Sequence record: PZ445524.1
Strand: one strand, 5' to 3'
DNA: 64,000 nucleotides
Origin: a phage
Part shown: positions 48,924 to 58,457 of the stretch, one piece after another
Layout: each line of letters opens with the position of its first letter
Numbering within the stretch: the stretch's first letter is position 1
Program-made: the position numbers and the translations under genes
The notes under the pieces: generated by a model
Told to the model about the DNA's origin: nothing
Seen by the model: the letters and a program-made list of their open reading frames with translations, nothing else
The model's database searches: none

Positions 48924-49394
48924 TTAATCATGTTTCCACACCCCATCGGTATTTGACCAAAGCCGCTGATTATCTGATCCTCGCCACAGCTTTTTAGTCG
49001 GAAGATTTTTCTCATACTTCCCATCAATAATAACATCAACATATTTAAGCATTTCTAGTTGTTTAATATCTTCAAACTTATATCCAGTCCACAACCAAAT
49101 GCTTTTATTGGGATAAAGATTTTTTACTGTTTGAACAATGCAATGAATAACATCTCGGTTATCAGGATAGAGAGGGTCACCTCCGGTTATAGTCAATCCT
49201 TCTATATAATCATTATTCAAACATTCAATTAATTGTTCTAGTGTTTCACCAGTGAATGGAACGCCATTTCTAGCATTCCATGTTGATTTATTATAACACC
49301 CTTCACATTTATGCAAACAGCCTGTAACGAAAAGAACGGTCCTGCAGCCAGGACCATTAATAAAATCGCAAGGATAAAATCTATCATAATTCAT
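48924..49394 (-). CDS. nrdG: anaerobic ribonucleotide reductase activating protein (radical SAM)
   Basis: 156 aa; CxxxCxxC-type cluster motif GCLHKCEGC. Confidence 0.9.
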   Translation of the reverse strand: MNYDRFYPCDFINGPGCRTVLFVTGCLHKCEGCYNKSTWNARNGVPFTGETLEQLIECLNNDYIEGLTITGGDPLYPDNRDVIHCIVQTVKNLYPNKSIWLWTGYKFEDIKQLEMLKYVDVIIDGKYEKNLPTKKLWRGSDNQRLWSNTDGVWKHD

Positions 49395-51208
49395 TGGTGT
49401 TTAACCCTATGCATGATTTCTTTATTTTTGCCGAGATTAAATCCGCGTTCGTTCGGATTTCCCAAATAACCACACGTTCTTCTTATTGTGTTCATCTTTT
49501 TAGGATCAGTTTCTCCACAAATAGAACAAACAAATCCGTTTTCAGTAGGAGTCATTTCATGGGTACTTCCACATGTAAAACATTTATCTACTGGCATATT
49601 AACACCAAAATAATCTAAATGTTGTGCAGCATAATCCCACACGGCCTCAAGACCTTTCAAGTTATTTTTCATATCAGGAAGTTCAACATAAGAAATGTGA
49701 CCACCTGTCGCAATGAAATGATATGGCGCTTCACGAGAAATCTTTTCAAACGGAGTAATATTTTCTTCTACTGAAACATGGAAACTGTTAGTGTACCAAC
49801 CTTTATCGGTAACATCTTTTACGCTTCCATATTTTTCTGTATCGAGTTTACAGAAGCGATAACAAAGGTTTTCAGCAGGAGTCGAATATAAACTAAAAGC
49901 AAATCCAGTTCTTTCAGTCCACTGTTTAAGACGAGCATTCATTTTAGTTAAAATTTCTCGTCCAATATCACGACCGGCAAGAATATTCAATTCGTGAATA
50001 CCAATGTATCCTAAAGACACTGAACTTCTACCGTTTTTAAATAACTCAATTATGTCGTCATCAGGTTTAAGACGAACCCCGAATGCACCTTCTTGGTAAA
50101 GAATAGGAGCAACAGTAGCTTTAACTCCTTTTAAGGAACTAATTCTACACATCAAAGCTTCAAAACATAAATCCATTCGTTCATTAAATAGCTCAACAAA
50201 TTTCTGTTCATTGAACTGTGTTCCAATATAAGAATCTAACGCGATGCGAGGAAGATTCAGTGTTACAACACCAAGATTATTACGTCCATCAAGAATTTCA
50301 TTACCAGTCGAATCTTTCCATACGCTCAAGAAACTACGGCATCCCATCGGAGAAACAGGAACAGATGAACCAGTGATAGCTTTATTGTTCTTAGCTGAAA
50401 TAATATCAGGATACATCCTTTTGCTTGCACACTCTAGAGCAAGCTGCTTAATATCATAGTTCGGATCATCTTTATAAAGATTAACACCTTCTTCGACGAA
50501 CATAACAAGCTTAGGGAAAATAGGAGTTATCCCATCACGACCAAGACCTTTAATACGATTTTTCAGAATTGCTTTCTGAATCATTCGTTCAGTCCAGTCA
50601 GTTCCCGTACCAAATGTAATTGTTACAAAAGGTGTTTGCCCGTTTGAACTAAAGAGAGTATTTACTTCATATTCATAAGCTTGGAATGCATCGTATACGT
50701 CTTTTTCTGTTTTAGATTGAGCATAATTCAACGCATCAGCGATTTGCCATTTTTCTGCATCTTCAATATGTTTTGCATAGGTGCGTTTAACATAAGGAGA
50801 AAGTACTTTATCTACATTCGCAAAAGTCGTTCCGCCGTATTGGTGAGAAGCAACCTGTGCAGTAATTTGTGCCATAATTGCAGTAGCAACACCGATTGAT
50901 TTAGGAGTTTCAATCTGCGCATTACCAAGCTTAAATCCGTTCTCAAGCATTCCTTTTAAATCTACTAAACAGCAATTAGTAAATGGAAGAGCAGGGGAAT
51001 AATCAATATCATGGAAATGAATAATTCCGCTTTCATGCGCTTTCATAATAAAAGACGGGACCATATTTTTGGCAATGTGTTTAGACACAATACCAGCCAT
51101 AAGGTCCCGTTGAGTTGGAAAAACACGAGAATCTTTATTAGCATTCTCGTTTAAAAGGTCTTTATTAGTTTTATGAATCAATCCTTCAATTTCTTTTTCA
51201 ATTGTCAT
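49391..51208 (-). CDS. nrdD: anaerobic ribonucleoside-triphosphate reductase, uninterrupted
   Basis: 605 aa continuous ORF; C-terminal glycyl-radical and Cys-rich region; 4-nt overlap with nrdG. Confidence 0.95.
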   Translation of the reverse strand: MTIEKEIEGLIHKTNKDLLNENANKDSRVFPTQRDLMAGIVSKHIAKNMVPSFIMKAHESGIIHFHDIDYSPALPFTNCCLVDLKGMLENGFKLGNAQIETPKSIGVATAIMAQITAQVASHQYGGTTFANVDKVLSPYVKRTYAKHIEDAEKWQIADALNYAQSKTEKDVYDAFQAYEYEVNTLFSSNGQTPFVTITFGTGTDWTERMIQKAILKNRIKGLGRDGITPIFPKLVMFVEEGVNLYKDDPNYDIKQLALECASKRMYPDIISAKNNKAITGSSVPVSPMGCRSFLSVWKDSTGNEILDGRNNLGVVTLNLPRIALDSYIGTQFNEQKFVELFNERMDLCFEALMCRISSLKGVKATVAPILYQEGAFGVRLKPDDDIIELFKNGRSSVSLGYIGIHELNILAGRDIGREILTKMNARLKQWTERTGFAFSLYSTPAENLCYRFCKLDTEKYGSVKDVTDKGWYTNSFHVSVEENITPFEKISREAPYHFIATGGHISYVELPDMKNNLKGLEAVWDYAAQHLDYFGVNMPVDKCFTCGSTHEMTPTENGFVCSICGETDPKKMNTIRRTCGYLGNPNERGFNLGKNKEIMHRVKHQ

Positions 51209-52977: not shown

Positions 52978-53220
52978 TTATTCCTTAATTCCTAGTACTT
53001 GTTTAAAAGTCTCGTCGTAATCAAGACTTTGGCCCGTTTGTTCTTTATGTTTGTATATAATATCACTTACTTCTGATAGCATATTTTTATATGAACGAGT
53101 TAAAGCTGATTTAAGCACGCTGTATCTATCAGGAAATTTACCGTGTTCATTATAATAAGCTATTGCTAATTCACGGACTGCCTTTTCGGCAGTCTCCATA
53201 TATTCTTTACGCTTGGTCAT
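52978..53220 (-). CDS. hypothetical protein (80 aa)
   Basis: track ORF trimmed to [13 protein letters not shown] to remove overlap. Confidence 0.5.
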
Positions 53221-53503
53221 TTTCTTCTCGGTCAAATCGGTGTTTACAATGGCGACATTTATAACGAAGATTATTAGTCTGCCAATGGACCAATTGCACC
53301 TGTTCAGTTCCACATTCAGGGCAATTAGGAACGTATTTAGAAGCCCTTTCGCGACGTTTAACCATAGCCATAATGGCATCCCATGCTGGAGGTTTAAAAT
53401 CTAAATCGTCAGTAACTAGCAGTCCTTTATCAAACCCAGCGCATGGAGTCCATTCAGGAAAATCTGAAGCTTCGGCAATATCTTCTAATAGACGCTTTTT
53501 CAT
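53207..53503 (-). CDS. zinc-ribbon protein (98 aa)
   Basis: CPECGTE...CRHCKHRF four-Cys motif. Confidence 0.6.
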
Positions 53504-54426
53504 TTCAATACCTCAATAGCATTACGTAAACCATTTGCTTTTGCATTAAGAGCTTTTAACAATTTGGTGTGTTCTGCAATTTGGGCTTCAACTTCAATCA
53601 AACGAGCATTGAGATATTCGCGTTCTTCTTTCATAGTATCATTCCCATGATTGGATTTTGGTGTAGGTTTAAATTCACTAGGGTCCTTTAATTTAATAAC
53701 AAATTTAGTTTCAAACAGTGAAAGACCATAATTCATATTATCATCAAAGGATTTGACTACATCCATATCAGATAATAACACGCGTAAATTATAAGCCAAA
53801 GAACTAATAGTTTCATTGTGTTTATTAGCTTCGCGTGGTTTCATATACGGAAGATTTTTATATATCTCGTGCGGAGCACAAATGATAATTGACAATTCAA
53901 ATTGCCCATTCTGGGACGATGGAGTGAATTTAGCCGTAACCCAGTCTTTTACATTTACATTAATAGTACGGTTATCACCATGACAAAACAGTCTACGAGA
54001 ATGCTTAAAAAGCATATTCACATTATTATTAAATTCGTGTGAAAATTCACTAGCAAATTTTTCTTTACTATCTTTAGAAAACCATTCTTCTAAATAAGTT
54101 CTTTTCACGTCGTTAATAATATTAAATGTAACAACACTAGCATTTGATACATTAGTCTCAATGTAGCTTGGATACATAAATTTTTTAACATTATTAACAG
54201 CTATCACAGAAGATAGTAATCGGGAACGTTTGAACCACTCGAGCAAAGAACCAAGAGAATGTGAATATGCATTTTGTGTATCTTTACAAATATGGTTTTC
54301 CCATCCAATATAGTCTAAAAAATCACGAAGAATATTATTGATTACTGCTCTGTGTCCTATCTGATAATTACGATGTTTAGTAATAAGACTGTCAAAATAA
54401 TCAATATAATGTTTACGAGTTTTCAT
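53500..54426 (-). CDS. hypothetical protein, coiled-coil-tailed family member 1 (308 aa)
   Basis: ORF track; C-terminal heptad-like segment EEREYLNARLIEVEAQIAEHTKLLKALNAK. Confidence 0.65.
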   Translation of the reverse strand: MKTRKHYIDYFDSLITKHRNYQIGHRAVINNILRDFLDYIGWENHICKDTQNAYSHSLGSLLEWFKRSRLLSSVIAVNNVKKFMYPSYIETNVSNASVVTFNIINDVKRTYLEEWFSKDSKEKFASEFSHEFNNNVNMLFKHSRRLFCHGDNRTINVNVKDWVTAKFTPSSQNGQFELSIIICAPHEIYKNLPYMKPREANKHNETISSLAYNLRVLLSDMDVVKSFDDNMNYGLSLFETKFVIKLKDPSEFKPTPKSNHGNDTMKEEREYLNARLIEVEAQIAEHTKLLKALNAKANGLRNAIEVLK

Positions 54427-54478
54427 GTTCTTCTCACTTGGTTAATGATTTATACTCCGAGCCATCCTTGGCTTTAAA

Positions 54479-55480
54479 TTACTTAATTAACTGTAAAGCT
54501 TGTTCCAGACGATCAAGACGATTAACAGATTCTTCCCAAATCCTTTTAGCCTGCTCATATTCTTTCTGCGCTTTATTAGAAATTTCTAGAACTTCTTTAT
54601 AAGCTTTTTCTAGTGCAATAACTTCTGGACGAATTTCTATCGGTTCAGGTGAATCATCAAGACATTCCATTAGTTCCTCAAGGGTAGTTTCTTCTTTAGG
54701 AGTATTCACAATTTCATCACATTTTTGTTGATAAATTTCTTTATCAGTAGGTGAGTACGCGCACTTTACTTCACGAAGACTAATTACAATTTTATATCCT
54801 TCCCAACCGCATATATTCTTAAAAGGATAAGTATGAATATTTTCTACTGTTTCCATACAAAGTAATGCGGTCTCTAATTGACGAGTTATAGTGCTAGCAA
54901 TTGAGAAAAATTTATTAATGTTCTTTTGGTTAGTTTCTGGTGTAAAAAATCCATAATTCACAAAAATAGATACTTTATTTTTATCAAGTTCATATTCTTT
55001 TATGATAATCATATCAGAAGCCAAAGGATGAATTTGACGATAATCGCCATAACATAATTTAGAAGCTGATTTTAGAATCTGTCCTTTGAAAAGTCTGAAA
55101 TTACTAATCCAACGACGAGTAAAAATATTCTCAGGGTCTTCTTTATTATTAAGATGATAAGAATTAACATCACCGAACCAATTATATCCTACTACATCTT
55201 TGGTTCGTTTAATTTCTTTCCCAAAATTACCAAGAATATCCCGATTAACCAAATATGAAAGAAGACGAGACTCTTTAAAGGTTTTCTTGATAAGATCTTT
55301 ATCTACACGGCTAGAAATTTTACGAATTTCATGAATAAATTTAGTAGAAGAAACAATACCTGCATCAACACTATTGAGCCATTGATTGATAATAGAAAGA
55401 ACGCTATTTTGGCCAAACATCGGTATAGCTTTATCATCAATAACGCTATTGAATGATTTGATATATTCGTTACGAGTCAT
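54479..55480 (-). CDS. hypothetical protein, coiled-coil-tailed family member 2 (333 aa)
   Basis: track ORF trimmed (it ran through an early promoter) to ATG after GGAG; C-terminal coiled-coil-like tail. Confidence 0.65.
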   Translation of the reverse strand: MTRNEYIKSFNSVIDDKAIPMFGQNSVLSIINQWLNSVDAGIVSSTKFIHEIRKISSRVDKDLIKKTFKESRLLSYLVNRDILGNFGKEIKRTKDVVGYNWFGDVNSYHLNNKEDPENIFTRRWISNFRLFKGQILKSASKLCYGDYRQIHPLASDMIIIKEYELDKNKVSIFVNYGFFTPETNQKNINKFFSIASTITRQLETALLCMETVENIHTYPFKNICGWEGYKIVISLREVKCAYSPTDKEIYQQKCDEIVNTPKEETTLEELMECLDDSPEPIEIRPEVIALEKAYKEVLEISNKAQKEYEQAKRIWEESVNRLDRLEQALQLIK

Positions 55481-55508
55481 ATTAATCTCCTCAGTAGAAA
55501 GTAAGAAC

Positions 55509-55538
55509 ATTATACCACATCCTTGTGGCAAAGTAAAC
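55509..55538 (-). promoter_or_regulatory. early promoter (GTTTAC-N18-TATAAT)
   Basis: minus strand GTTTACTTTGCCACAAGGATGTGGTATAAT. Confidence 0.55.
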
Positions 55539-56563
55539 TAGTTCAGTGCATTTAGTGCATTGTTCAGTTTAGAACGTTGCTTTGTCAGATTTTGAACCCT
55601 TGACTGAGCTTGTTTTAACACCTTTTCAGCTTCTAGCACTTCATTGGTCGCTTTAACGAGTTCAGCATCTACTGCTTTAAGAGACTTCTCAATCGCATCT
55701 GCATGCCATTTTTCAACAGGTTTAAGACTCGGATTTTCAACAGGAAGAAAATTCACTTTATTGAATTTCCATGCATCTTTATTACCTGAACTATACATCC
55801 AAAATTTAGGATCGTTTGATAAGTAATTGGATAAATTTAAATTTAAGTTATCTTGCACTTCCTGCTTTTTCTCTTGCGGGACTTCGTCCTTTCTCAAAAA
55901 TTCATATTTAAATGAAACGATCATATCAAGTTCATATGATGTTGTATCTAACTTAAATCGTTCAAAACGAGGTAAAATCTTAGATTGAACAGCAGCAACA
56001 ACATCCATATACTTAAATGCTTCTGTCAACTGTGATTTAAGGCATTCACAAATTGAAAGAGAATTTTTTGTATTAGGTTTAAAGCTAATTCGTGCAGTTC
56101 TATTATTTTCTTTTAACGGTCTTACTTCCATCTGAAGAGTATAACCATCAAATTTCAGATTCTTTAAGTTAATATCAGAGCCTTTTAATCGACTAGCAGT
56201 AGACAAAATTTGCTTTAATTGTCTACGGAATAGAGCAATAAATCTCCATTCAAGACGATAATGATTTGGATTGAAAAATCCAGATGATAAATCGACCTTA
56301 CTTTGACCAACGCCTTGAACAAATAGAGGATTTTTATAATCAATAGTTTTACAGAAATCGGTGAGCTGCTCACGAGCAGTCATTTGTGTAATATACCCCG
56401 CTTTACTAAAATGACGTAACCATTCACTGCTATTCATATATTTAAAGTGAATATCACGATTAACTTTATCAGGGTCTAAATTATTTTGGCACAAAAATGT
56501 CATAACATCACGAGTATAGCTGGCATTACGAACCATATCTTCAATTTGAGAACGAGTTTTCAT
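55538..56563 (-). CDS. hypothetical protein, coiled-coil-tailed family member 3 (341 aa)
   Basis: ORF track; N-terminus MKTR... like member 1; C-terminal coiled-coil-like tail. Confidence 0.65.
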   Translation of the reverse strand: MKTRSQIEDMVRNASYTRDVMTFLCQNNLDPDKVNRDIHFKYMNSSEWLRHFSKAGYITQMTAREQLTDFCKTIDYKNPLFVQGVGQSKVDLSSGFFNPNHYRLEWRFIALFRRQLKQILSTASRLKGSDINLKNLKFDGYTLQMEVRPLKENNRTARISFKPNTKNSLSICECLKSQLTEAFKYMDVVAAVQSKILPRFERFKLDTTSYELDMIVSFKYEFLRKDEVPQEKKQEVQDNLNLNLSNYLSNDPKFWMYSSGNKDAWKFNKVNFLPVENPSLKPVEKWHADAIEKSLKAVDAELVKATNEVLEAEKVLKQAQSRVQNLTKQRSKLNNALNALN

Positions 56564-56571
56564 GGTGTTCC

Positions 56572-57459
56572 TTAAGATTTAAGTAAATCAACAATTTTAA
56601 TTAACTTTTCACGCTCAGATTTAGCTTTACTACTCAATCCAGATAGTCTGAAAATTTCATCATCATATTGTTGAATAGAAATATTCAGCTCTTCAATCTG
56701 TTTATTAAAATAATCAATTTGTTCAGAATGTTTTTCGTTACTACGAAATGGTACAAGTTTTGTAGGCAATTTAGTTGAACTGGATTCATTCGGGCGATAA
56801 ATTAAAATGCAATTTGAACCAATCGGGCATTTAGCACCAGATGAATATTCTAACGTTCCAGCTTCTTTTAAAACTTCAAAAGCTAAACAGAGATGATGCC
56901 CCATATTAACATAATCTGTAGAGCGAGCTCTGATGTAATAATCATCTCCACGAGTACTAAATTTAAAGCATTTAAGGTCTTCTGTATTATTGGTCTTAAA
57001 AATCATTTGTTTATCTAGACCTTTAGCTAATCGAGCACCTAATGCTAATAATCGTCGTTGATTTTCCCACAAATCTGCGATCATTTGGTCGAATGATAAT
57101 TTCGGCATTAGTCGGCCATAAAGGTCATATCCTTTATTATAATTACGAAGGATTTCACTCGCGTTAATACGAGACAATGCTCCAATTTTATTAAGGGCTT
57201 TCATAATGCGATTAGATAAACTCATTCCAGACCCGTTTGTTCGCTGTAAATGTTTATCTAATCCAAACCCAATATCAACTTTAAATTTATCTAAAATTTC
57301 TGCATGAACATCTTTATCAATAACATTCAAATCCAAAGTTGGGTTAAATCTATGAAAAAATTTATCTGGCTCTCCACGACGAAGTACAGTCCATTCATTC
57401 AATTTTTTATTAACTAAAGATTTAATTACTGCATTGACATTATTAATTACTACTGACAT
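56572..57459 (-). CDS. hypothetical protein, coiled-coil-tailed family member 4 (295 aa)
   Basis: trimmed from TTG to ATG after GAGGAA; C-terminal coiled-coil-like tail. Confidence 0.65.
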   Translation of the reverse strand: MSVVINNVNAVIKSLVNKKLNEWTVLRRGEPDKFFHRFNPTLDLNVIDKDVHAEILDKFKVDIGFGLDKHLQRTNGSGMSLSNRIMKALNKIGALSRINASEILRNYNKGYDLYGRLMPKLSFDQMIADLWENQRRLLALGARLAKGLDKQMIFKTNNTEDLKCFKFSTRGDDYYIRARSTDYVNMGHHLCLAFEVLKEAGTLEYSSGAKCPIGSNCILIYRPNESSSTKLPTKLVPFRSNEKHSEQIDYFNKQIEELNISIQQYDDEIFRLSGLSSKAKSEREKLIKIVDLLKS

Positions 57460-57466
57460 ATTTTCC

Positions 57467-57874
57467 TCACTCAATTTCAATTTTACTAAATATACAGAAT
57501 AAGATAGAACAGACTATATAAGCACCACACACAGATTGAACTAATACCATTCCAAAGAACCAAACAATATTATCAAACCATGTCTGTTTTACGTCGAAAG
57601 GACGTAAACTTACAGTAATATTATCACCTTTTTCTATTGAAGAATACATCTCCGGTGAAATATATTCGCTAAATCTATAACCGTCTTTGAGTTCATATAC
57701 AGCAATAAACGATAAACTAGACCCCTTTCCTTGAGTTCCTGTAAGGGTATTAACTACAGTAACATCATAATCTTTATAATGCATATAATCATTAATTGCG
57801 TAATAACCATATGCAATTACTATACATAAACAACATATCAATAAATTCAATCTTTTAATTATCAACTGTTTCAT
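57467..57874 (-). CDS. membrane protein (135 aa)
   Basis: ORF track; N- and C-terminal hydrophobic helices. Confidence 0.6.
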   Translation of the reverse strand: MKQLIIKRLNLLICCLCIVIAYGYYAINDYMHYKDYDVTVVNTLTGTQGKGSSLSFIAVYELKDGYRFSEYISPEMYSSIEKGDNITVSLRPFDVKQTWFDNIVWFFGMVLVQSVCGAYIVCSILFCIFSKIEIE

Positions 57875-57929: not shown

Positions 57930-58457
57930 TTATGCGAGTACCGTCTTTAACCGTTCTTCAAACTTCCGAAGAGTGTTCTGGCGTTCAGCTCTTTGCTTTT
58001 TGTAAGTTTCAATACGCTCTGAAATGAGAGTGTATCGTTCATTTACTGATTCTTTCATAAAATCAGGAATTTCACGAGAAGCTTTAATCTCATCAAATTT
58101 ATCAATAACAGCTTGCTCTTCAGCAATTAAGTTATCATACATCAAAATATCTTTCTTGATGAACTCAATATCTTCTTGAGTTACACGAGATAATTTAGAT
58201 GCTTTATCCTTTTTGTACTGTTCATTAGTATCACGAGACCAGTGTAATGTACGATTTTTATTCGTATTTTTGTAAATTTCTACAATACCAATCTCATCGA
58301 TAATAACGATCCAATTCCAACGAGATTTGTAAATTTGCCCTCCGTCAACCGTGATTTCACCTCCGATTGAGATGTCATTAAAGAACTTGCTTTGTGCTTC
58401 AGATTTAAATTTACCATCGTTGTAATTTACCAGGTTGAAAATATCTTTAGCGTTCAT
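57930..58457 (-). CDS. hypothetical protein (175 aa)
   Basis: ORF track; conserved early leader upstream. Confidence 0.6.
   Translation of the reverse strand: MNAKDIFNLVNYNDGKFKSEAQSKFFNDISIGGEITVDGGQIYKSRWNWIVIIDEIGIVEIYKNTNKNRTLHWSRDTNEQYKKDKASKLSRVTQEDIEFIKKDILMYDNLIAEEQAVIDKFDEIKASREIPDFMKESVNERYTLISERIETYKKQRAERQNTLRKFEERLKTVLA

Follow-up and report, generated by a model that had tools for sequence, protein, structure and literature searches.

Within a 64,000-nucleotide stretch of phage DNA (sequence record PZ445524.1; hereafter, the window), which comes from a T4-like phage of the genus Tequatrovirus, we analyzed four consecutive genes that are orthologs of T4 nrdC.3, nrdC.4, nrdC.5 and nrdC.6. 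On the evidence presented below, we lean slightly towards the interpretation that these genes encode a family of three-part inhibitors of host immune proteins, each consisting of a head, a linker and a coiled-coil tail. The firmest part of this interpretation concerns nrdC.5, for which genetic experiments by others have shown that the T4 protein, 96–97% identical to that encoded in the window, counters the defense protein Dsr1. Profile comparisons indicate that NrdC.3, NrdC.4 and NrdC.5 are distant paralogs that arose by duplication, and NrdC.6 is probably a fourth, albeit unproven, paralog.

The array was initially noticed in a sequence-only reading of the window, which described four paralog-like genes with coiled-coil tails, recognized no domain in their products, and proposed an uncharacterized host-interaction or anti-defense module. 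All four open reading frames (ORFs) are indeed present, on the minus strand (Table 1). Domains can nevertheless be assigned: DUF7235, PF26897, PF26899, phrog_1435 and phrog_2257 are now catalogued and all four proteins belong to such families. Likewise, nrdC.5 is already published as a counter-defense gene, so the module is uncharacterized only with respect to nrdC.3, nrdC.4 and nrdC.6, which have no functional reports, and the anti-defense proposal agrees with experiment for one of the four members. What is new is the family relationship, the modular evolution of heads and tails with natural chimeras, and, as a lead, a terminator-like head fold.

Although no virulent phage has been studied better than T4, the majority of the genes in its plastic regions lack an assigned function. 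The present analysis turns NrdC.3, NrdC.4 and NrdC.6 from hypothetical proteins, often mislabeled as thioredoxin, into specific counter-defense candidates that can be tested at low cost.

Identification of the four genes

A 4.5-kb stretch around the four genes matches 509 T4-like phage records at 90–97% nucleotide identity (megablast). The T4 annotation and synteny are concordant with the assignment, and the order nrdC.4-nrdC.5-nrdC.6 is the same as in T4. The genes lie between nrdC and nrdC.7, among accessory genes of a plastic and non-essential region that is transcribed after nrdC; the flanking nrdD, gene 49 (endonuclease VII), nrdC, nrdC.7, nrdC.8 and nrdC.10 (ATPase) are all on the minus strand as well.

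The product of the third gene in Table 1 is the ortholog of T4 NrdC.5, the DUF7235 protein (PF23882), as it is encoded at the same position and matches over its full length, scoring 402 bits against a cut-off of 30 with residues 1–341 covered. The Pfam scan gave no match to this family for NrdC.3, NrdC.4 or NrdC.6, which are related to T4 NrdC.5 only by profile-profile comparison or fold. In PHROGs, NrdC.3 and NrdC.4 match phrog_1435 (E = 1.9e-101 and 2.3e-168, respectively) and NrdC.6 matches phrog_2257 (E = 9.3e-151); PF26897 is present in all NrdC.4 relatives. NrdC.6 is 98% identical to T4 NrdC.6 across the 88% of its length that aligns. Beyond DUF7235, Pfam, NCBIfam and PADLOC scans of the four proteins returned nothing informative, the small matches being coiled-coil noise, and when the family profiles were searched against all PDB sequences, no structurally solved relative emerged. 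Thus, by the tests made, the four proteins are not enzymes. None of them matches the thioredoxin family. Many GenBank phage records label homologs of nrdC.1–nrdC.10 as thioredoxin, and this label apparently spread from the gene name nrdC.

T4 nrdC.5 counters Dsr1

Dsr1 is a SIR2 defense protein that was studied, together with nrdC.5, by Srikant, Guegler and Laub (eLife 2022, PMC9391042). In that work, a T4 clone with deletions was unable to infect ECOR17, deletion of dsr1 in the host restored infection, and plasmid-borne dsr1 protected MG1655 from the T4 deletion clone. Plating of this clone on MG1655 with dsr1 from ECOR17 was restored by plasmid-borne T4 nrdC.5, which was described as an early, non-essential gene. 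According to a 2026 preprint (PMC12803255), E. coli Dsr1 (EcDsr1, WP_029488749.1) shares a TPR sensor with Avs7, and a library screen identified the phage major capsid protein as the unique trigger of Dsr1-mediated cell death. The open-access literature searched contained no other functional mention of nrdC.3, nrdC.4 or nrdC.6 and no mechanism for NrdC.5.

Relationships among the four proteins

Pairwise BLASTP comparison of the four proteins detects only the pair NrdC.3/NrdC.4, and weakly (24% identity over 168 residues, E = 0.015). In profile-profile comparisons with hhalign, the heads of these two proteins match with a P value of 5.7e-14 and 98% probability. Either of them aligns collinearly with NrdC.5 over the full length (P = 1e-5 to 5e-6) and with the heads only (P = 8.6e-5 and 3.1e-4), compared with P values of 0.2–0.3 in the reversed-sequence controls. 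The three profiles are bridged by a 315-residue protein of Klebsiella phage F48 (P0237), with 90–93% probability for each. A joint MAFFT alignment reveals common landmarks, namely, an M(K)TR start, an F.[KR]S..LS...A...L..F helix, an ..IL..A.[RK]L..GD helix-turn and a C-terminal L..A[IL]..LK. As pointed out in the sequence-only reading, two of the proteins, NrdC.3 and NrdC.5, begin with MKTR; NrdC.4 begins with MTR, and the joint alignment shows no variation at T3 and R4. Hence, the proposed paralogy is upheld for three of the proteins, and NrdC.6 shares their build with weak sequence support.

When compared with the merged NrdC.3–NrdC.5 profile, NrdC.6 aligns collinearly over 269 columns, with a weak P value of 0.007 versus 0.27 for the reversed control. 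Its landmarks ...LSR.NA..IL..Y, NQRRLLALGARLA.G.D, PV..EKH..QI and LLK lie opposite those of the merged profile. Comparisons of its domain profiles with the other three proteins gave P values of 0.004–0.15, a hidden Markov model (HMM)-sequence search did not distinguish it from background ORFs (E = 0.069, rank 7 of 86), and no sequence bridging NrdC.6 to the other three was found. In the structural models described below, NrdC.5 and NrdC.6 share the same order of elements: a long helix, a beta-beta-alpha-beta-beta unit, a linker and a long helix. Both models match the same four BFVD proteins (from Cronus, Acj61, Merlin and fHe-Yen9-01; E = 1e-3 to 3e-7), which are uncharacterized proteins of 300–370 residues from distant T4-like phages. 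A 175-residue protein of Klebsiella phage KPV15 was a weak match in both of these BFVD searches.

It is a substantial possibility, although one we consider the less probable, that NrdC.6 is not a paralog and that its head-linker-coiled-coil build arose by convergence or through acquisition of a tail module. The N-domain profile comparisons, the background rank in the HMM-sequence search, the missing bridge and the different conservation regime of NrdC.6 (see below) are compatible with this scenario. A common origin is suggested by the collinear full-length alignment, the coincident landmarks, the shared order of secondary structure elements and the common BFVD matches, as well as by the location of nrdC.6 next to the other genes on the same strand. 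Sequence homology of NrdC.6 is suggestive, and it is probably a fourth paralog; it would then stem from a much older duplication, the alternative being that it merely looks similar.

Predicted head-linker-tail architecture

Each of the proteins is predicted to be cytoplasmic and to consist of a fast-evolving globular head of about 220–250 residues, a disordered linker of 15–60 residues and an amphipathic tail helix of 45–55 residues, through which the proteins may form coiled-coil oligomers. The predicted head comprises a helical N-lobe followed by a conserved core that includes a long helix, a G-D turn and a beta-beta-alpha-beta-beta unit.

The tails were assessed by comparing the best-register score for apolar heptad periodicity in the last 42 residues of each protein with the scores of shuffles of its own residues. 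For all four tails, the fraction of shuffles that reached the observed score was 0.0000–0.009. AlphaFold2 (AF2) models cover NrdC.5 and NrdC.6. The NrdC.5 model, built from the merged NrdC.3/NrdC.4/NrdC.5 alignment and of moderate confidence (predicted local distance difference test, pLDDT, of 69.6), consists of a domain (residues 1–223), a disordered region (224–283) and one long C-terminal helix (285–340; pLDDT about 77–90), which is preceded by a conserved P-V-E-K-W-H motif. The NrdC.6 model (pLDDT 78) contains a helix, the beta-beta-alpha-beta-beta unit, a short linker and helices 242–271 and 277–294. The shuffle test and the AF2 helices support the C-terminal heptad periodicity put forward in the sequence-only reading; the tails, taken there to be 35–45 residues long, are rather about 50–56 residues in the AF2 predictions.

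Conservation within the tail regions is pronounced. Invariant residues of NrdC.5 include P282, E284, H287, I291, N325, Q329, K332, L333 and A336, the NrdC.6 tail contains an invariant DDEIF..L....K.ER...LLK, and an L..A[IL]..LK-like C-terminus is conserved in every family alignment.

Two phages deviate in this region. Compared with window positions 56572–56700, the T4 reference (L001:12067-12140) lacks one nucleotide (GAGCTG[A]ATATT), which shifts the reading frame of the last ~45 codons of nrdC.6, so that the annotated T4 NrdC.6 (275 residues) has no coiled-coil tail; the downstream DNA still encodes the tail in another frame. RB69 NrdC.5 (L002:5973-6875, 300 residues) ends in a non-helical C-terminus with cysteine and proline. 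In the closely related phage PhAPEC2 (L008:3976-4935), the protein is 319 residues long and has the usual tail; RB69 nrdC.5 is likely frameshifted near the 3′ end.

Predicted fold of the NrdC.5 head

The NrdC.5 head model shows fold similarity to solved tail terminators, with 98–115 residues aligned at 5–13% identity, and weaker BFVD matches to tail completion and terminator proteins agree with a terminator-like fold. The next structural matches, over shorter stretches, are the RNA polymerase alpha N-terminal domain (alpha-NTD) and RPB11-like domains; because these score almost as well, the resemblance defines only a broad fold class. Pfam terminator families were not matched by any of the four proteins at E values up to 1, and T4 gp15 compared with all four family profiles gave hhalign P values of at least 0.085; at the sequence level, kinship with T4 gp15, gp14 or gp19 was thus dismissed. 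Terminators and completion proteins (lambda gpU, T5 p142, SPP1 gp17-like, DUF3168) have no profile match to NrdC.5. Unlike terminators, NrdC.5 carries a linker, a coiled-coil tail and an additional helical N-lobe, and it is encoded among the accessory genes around nrdC and not within the tail module. Given the lack of sequence support and the non-structural genomic setting, we record the resemblance of the predicted head core to the tail-terminator fold as a lead, not as membership in the terminator family.

The fold might be taken to suggest that the proteins are virion or tail-assembly components. We consider this very improbable: the genes are located among nucleotide-metabolism and accessory genes around nrdC, not among structural genes, nrdC.5 has been described as early and non-essential, there is no sequence similarity to T4 gp15, and whole genes of the array have been lost in viable phages.

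Evolutionary rates and head replacement

The four proteins diversify rapidly, as had been surmised. Across genera, their amino acid identity is 24–57%, compared with 98–99% for nrdD, 83–89% for gene 49, 83–92% for nrdC and 67–85% for nrdC.8. Within Tequatrovirus, the ratio of nonsynonymous to synonymous substitution rates (dN/dS) is 0.19–0.38 for nrdC.3–nrdC.5, about tenfold higher than the values of 0–0.03 for nrdD, gene 49, nrdC and nrdC.8; for nrdC.6, it is 0.07–0.11. These estimates indicate elevated rates, with selection that is relaxed or mosaic, as opposed to positive across the genes. NrdC.6 also has an almost invariant core, YNKGYDLYGR...NQRRLLALGARLA.G.DKQM.FKTN.

Among orthologs, the tails are better conserved than the heads in every case (for NrdC.6, 58–69% versus 27–37%). 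Two allele classes of nrdC.3 coexist in a single genus, with 140 records at 90% identity or above and 357 records at 60–63%. Compared with the Sf21 allele, the NrdC.3 tail is 93% identical and the head 60%. The synonymous substitution rate (dS) is 0.96 in the head and 0.07 in the tail, which points to recombination at the head/tail boundary, that is, a head swap.

Distribution, losses and chimeras

A profile search run exhaustively against 1.84 billion representative proteins recovered only 20 relatives, none of them of the NrdC.6 family. All contexts examined are those of T4-like phages, and the bacterial names on some matches belong to phage-sized contigs. A locus scan with NrdC.3 for related loci found only two near-identical viral contigs. 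The restriction of the family to T4-like phages is likewise a new result. NrdC.3 is present in 654 phage records, NrdC.4 in 554, NrdC.5 in 582 and NrdC.6 in 742.

The copy-number variation that the sequence-only reading had proposed to look for does occur, with one to four members among T4-like phages. Tequatrovirus carries nrdC.3, nrdC.4, nrdC.5 and nrdC.6; Mosigvirus (RB69, PhAPEC2) lacks nrdC.4; Gaprivervirus (VR26) and Dhakavirus (C6) lack nrdC.3; and Klebsiella T4-like phages have a single member at the syntenic site, flanked by ORFs unrelated to the family.

Several genomes record rearrangements within the array. In Salmonella phage Manna (L011:2715-3752), a single in-frame ORF joins NrdC.6 residues 1–268 to NrdC.4 residues 251–333. 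The junction is at a shared D-E-I microhomology, and nrdC.5 and the rest of nrdC.4 are deleted; Manna should be Dsr1-sensitive if NrdC.5 is the sole anti-Dsr1 factor. Phage ACG-C40 (L009:4802-5213) has lost nrdC.3, nrdC.4 and nrdC.5, apart from a remnant in which the first ~68 codons of nrdC.5 run out of frame into the nrdC.3 tail, and in phage Pinarejo (L012:3439-3652) the nrdC.6 head is lost and only the tail-coding end is left. A 299-residue protein, P0056, is a chimera of NrdC.5 residues 145–273 and NrdC.3 residues 134–308. The 378-residue NrdC.6 of Shigella phage Sf25 (P0121) contains an internal tandem duplication of residues 176–258 (83 residues). P0235, a candidate NrdC.5 tail on a foreign head, was set aside as unverified and perhaps the product of chimeric assembly: it comes from an 803-nt metagenome contig, and none of 50,697 phage records contains a full-length match to it.

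Array variation of this kind, including the loss of nrdC.5, could help to predict the host range of therapeutic T4-like phages on strains with Dsr1 or related sensors.

A possible mechanism of immune inhibition

We propose that the array would encode oligomeric inhibitors that are produced early, act stoichiometrically and each bind a different immune protein of the host. The head would bind a particular host sensor or effector, and the coiled-coil tail would make the inhibitor multivalent. The T4 capsid protein is encoded by gene 23, a late gene, and capsid protein triggers Dsr1; therefore, an early inhibitor would already be acting by the time the trigger is produced. More generally, the inhibitors would be present ahead of late structural triggers, so that the sensor would be disarmed in advance. 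NrdC.5 would bind Dsr1 directly, by analogy with the binding of DSR2 by DSAD1, and NrdC.3, NrdC.4 and NrdC.6 would target other host immune proteins. The faster divergence of heads than tails, the nrdC.3 head swap, the raised dN/dS, the range of copy numbers and the chimera may be read as the signature of an arms race. The common design, with heads diverging faster than tails, suggests that head specificity and tail function may be experimentally separable.

DSAD1 of phage SPbeta is a natural model for the possible action of NrdC.5: it is a phage protein that neutralizes the single-chain SIR2 NADase DSR2, whose sensor recognizes a late structural protein, and it does so by binding DSR2 directly. 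The two proteins, likened here by description, differ in host clade and target: DSR2 senses the tail tube and Dsr1 the capsid protein. DSAD1 is not known to possess a coiled-coil tail. Within T4, the accessory counter-defense genes tifA, dmd, adfA and ipI-III are similarly dispensable in laboratory hosts but needed on certain wild ones; they vary among T4-like phages, and deletions remove them readily. They differ from the nrdC array in that they are unrelated in sequence, encode mostly small single-domain proteins and form no tandem paralogous family.

NrdC.5 might instead defeat Dsr1 indirectly, by masking or delaying the capsid trigger or by affecting the NAD+ supply or the stability of Dsr1, with the tail docking on another factor of the phage or the host. 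The C-terminal L..A[IL]..LK common to the paralogs could dock such a shared partner, and known NAD+-reconstitution pathways likewise defeat DSR1. We nevertheless judge an indirect route improbable. NrdC.5 has no enzyme-like motif or family match and few invariant polar residues in its head; capsid protein is very abundant late in infection and would swamp a masking protein; and DSAD1, the best-studied analog, binds its target, DSR2, directly.

A broader challenge to direct inhibition by the whole family is that NrdC.5 alone could be a counter-defense protein, with NrdC.3, NrdC.4 and NrdC.6 being paralogs or look-alikes that serve in host takeover or regulation, drift as spare copies, or otherwise have a role that is unrelated or has lapsed. 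The published phenotype is limited to nrdC.5, NrdC.6 is under strong purifying selection, and in many natural phages at least one member is missing or survives as a broken remnant, as seen in ACG-C40, Pinarejo, RB69 and the T4 nrdC.6 frameshift. We regard this alternative as unlikely, though it deserves serious attention: hundreds of genomes retain each of the four genes as an intact ORF, none of the four is drifting, as shown by dN/dS well below 1, and each paralog strongly conserves a tail of its own. Furthermore, expansion of a known anti-defense protein would usually be expected to follow varied targets.

Several observations weigh against the inhibitor-family interpretation. The only member with a published phenotype is nrdC.5, and its rescue experiment (PMC9391042) used the T4 protein rather than the slightly different one encoded in the window. 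Gene-wide positive selection is unsupported, dN/dS being below 1 everywhere. The frameshift in the T4 reference removes the NrdC.6 tail, so this tail is dispensable in the laboratory. The homology of NrdC.6 to the other three proteins was not established by profile, HMM-sequence or bridging searches. NrdC.6 is also far better conserved than NrdC.3–NrdC.5, in a manner more suggestive of a fixed interaction of the housekeeping type than of an arms race; this tighter conservation and the near-invariant core call for caution before the same role is assigned to NrdC.6.

A more specific and improbable elaboration of the inhibitor-family interpretation would link it to the head fold. Avs-type receptors sense capsid, terminator and other virion folds. 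The heads could conceivably be re-used terminator-fold domains, expressed early as inert decoys that plug the TPR or solenoid sensors of pattern-recognition proteins of the host (Dsr1, Avs-type), one sensor per paralog, with the multivalent tails holding oligomeric sensors off and the heads recombining at the head/tail boundary, as in a diversifying decoy cassette.

Gene organization and neighboring genes

The positions of the four genes and associated features are given in Table 1. A Shine-Dalgarno sequence precedes each of the four genes, in agreement with the sequence-only reading. The ATG starts at 55480 (nrdC.4; Shine-Dalgarno GAGGAG) and 57459 (nrdC.6; Shine-Dalgarno GAGG) also agree with the N-termini of homologs. 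The longer TTG-initiated ORFs were rejected, as that from 55531 for nrdC.4 extends into the promoter and that from 57480 for nrdC.6 extends into nrdC.7. The description of the genes as separated only by promoters applies in front of nrdC.4, where a strong promoter-like site of the early type is found, but not to nrdC.6 and nrdC.5, between which there is an 8-nt gap without a promoter, nor to nrdC.7, which abuts nrdC.6. Given the 8-nt spacing, nrdC.6 and nrdC.5 are probably co-transcribed.

Table 1 Features of the nrdC.3–nrdC.6 array and neighboring genes in the window
Feature	Position	Strand	Description
nrdC.3 ortholog	53500..54426	minus	308 residues; head, linker, coiled-coil tail; 90% identity to T4; phrog_1435
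NrdC.3 predicted coiled-coil tail, ~residues 263–308	53503..53640	minus	heptad score 0.70 versus shuffle mean 0.36
nrdC.4 ortholog	54479..55480	minus	333 residues; 98% identity to T4; phrog_1435; relatives with PF26897
NrdC.4 predicted coiled-coil tail, ~residues 286–333	54482..54625	minus	heptad score above shuffles
Early-type promoter-like site before nrdC.4	55509..55537	minus	TTTACT-17-TATAAT, upstream TG; 10/12 positions; consensus match only
nrdC.5 ortholog	55538..56563	minus	341 residues; 96–97% identity to T4; DUF7235
NrdC.5 predicted C-terminal helix, residues 285–341	55541..55711	minus	AF2 helix 285–340; heptad score 0.82
NrdC.5 predicted disordered linker, residues 224–283	55715..55894	minus	pLDDT <50; indel-rich in alignments
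nrdC.6 ortholog	56572..57459	minus	295 residues; phrog_2257; relatives with PF26899; same build, paralogy not proven
NrdC.6 predicted C-terminal helices, residues 242–294	56575..56736	minus	AF2; heptad score above shuffles
nrdC.2 ortholog	53207..53503	minus
nrdC.8 ortholog	57930..58457	minus	175 residues
nrdD	49391..51208	minus	605 residues, uninterrupted

Some of the neighboring genes have features of their own. The nrdC.2 ortholog is only 62–66% identical to T4 and Sf21, whereas the adjoining nrdC and nrdC.1 are 99–100% identical to the T4/Sf21 versions. Its dN/dS versus T4, 0.88, is the highest in the region, and the C-terminus of its product contains a zinc-ribbon-like motif, CPEC...CRHC. 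The nrdC.8 product also has a heptad-periodic, charged C-terminal helix; its conservation (67–100%) is far above that of the four genes, and profile comparisons gave no linkage to the four-gene family. Small ORFs near nrdC differ from those of T4. Because nrdD is uninterrupted, the group I intron that carries I-TevII in T4 nrdD is absent from this phage.

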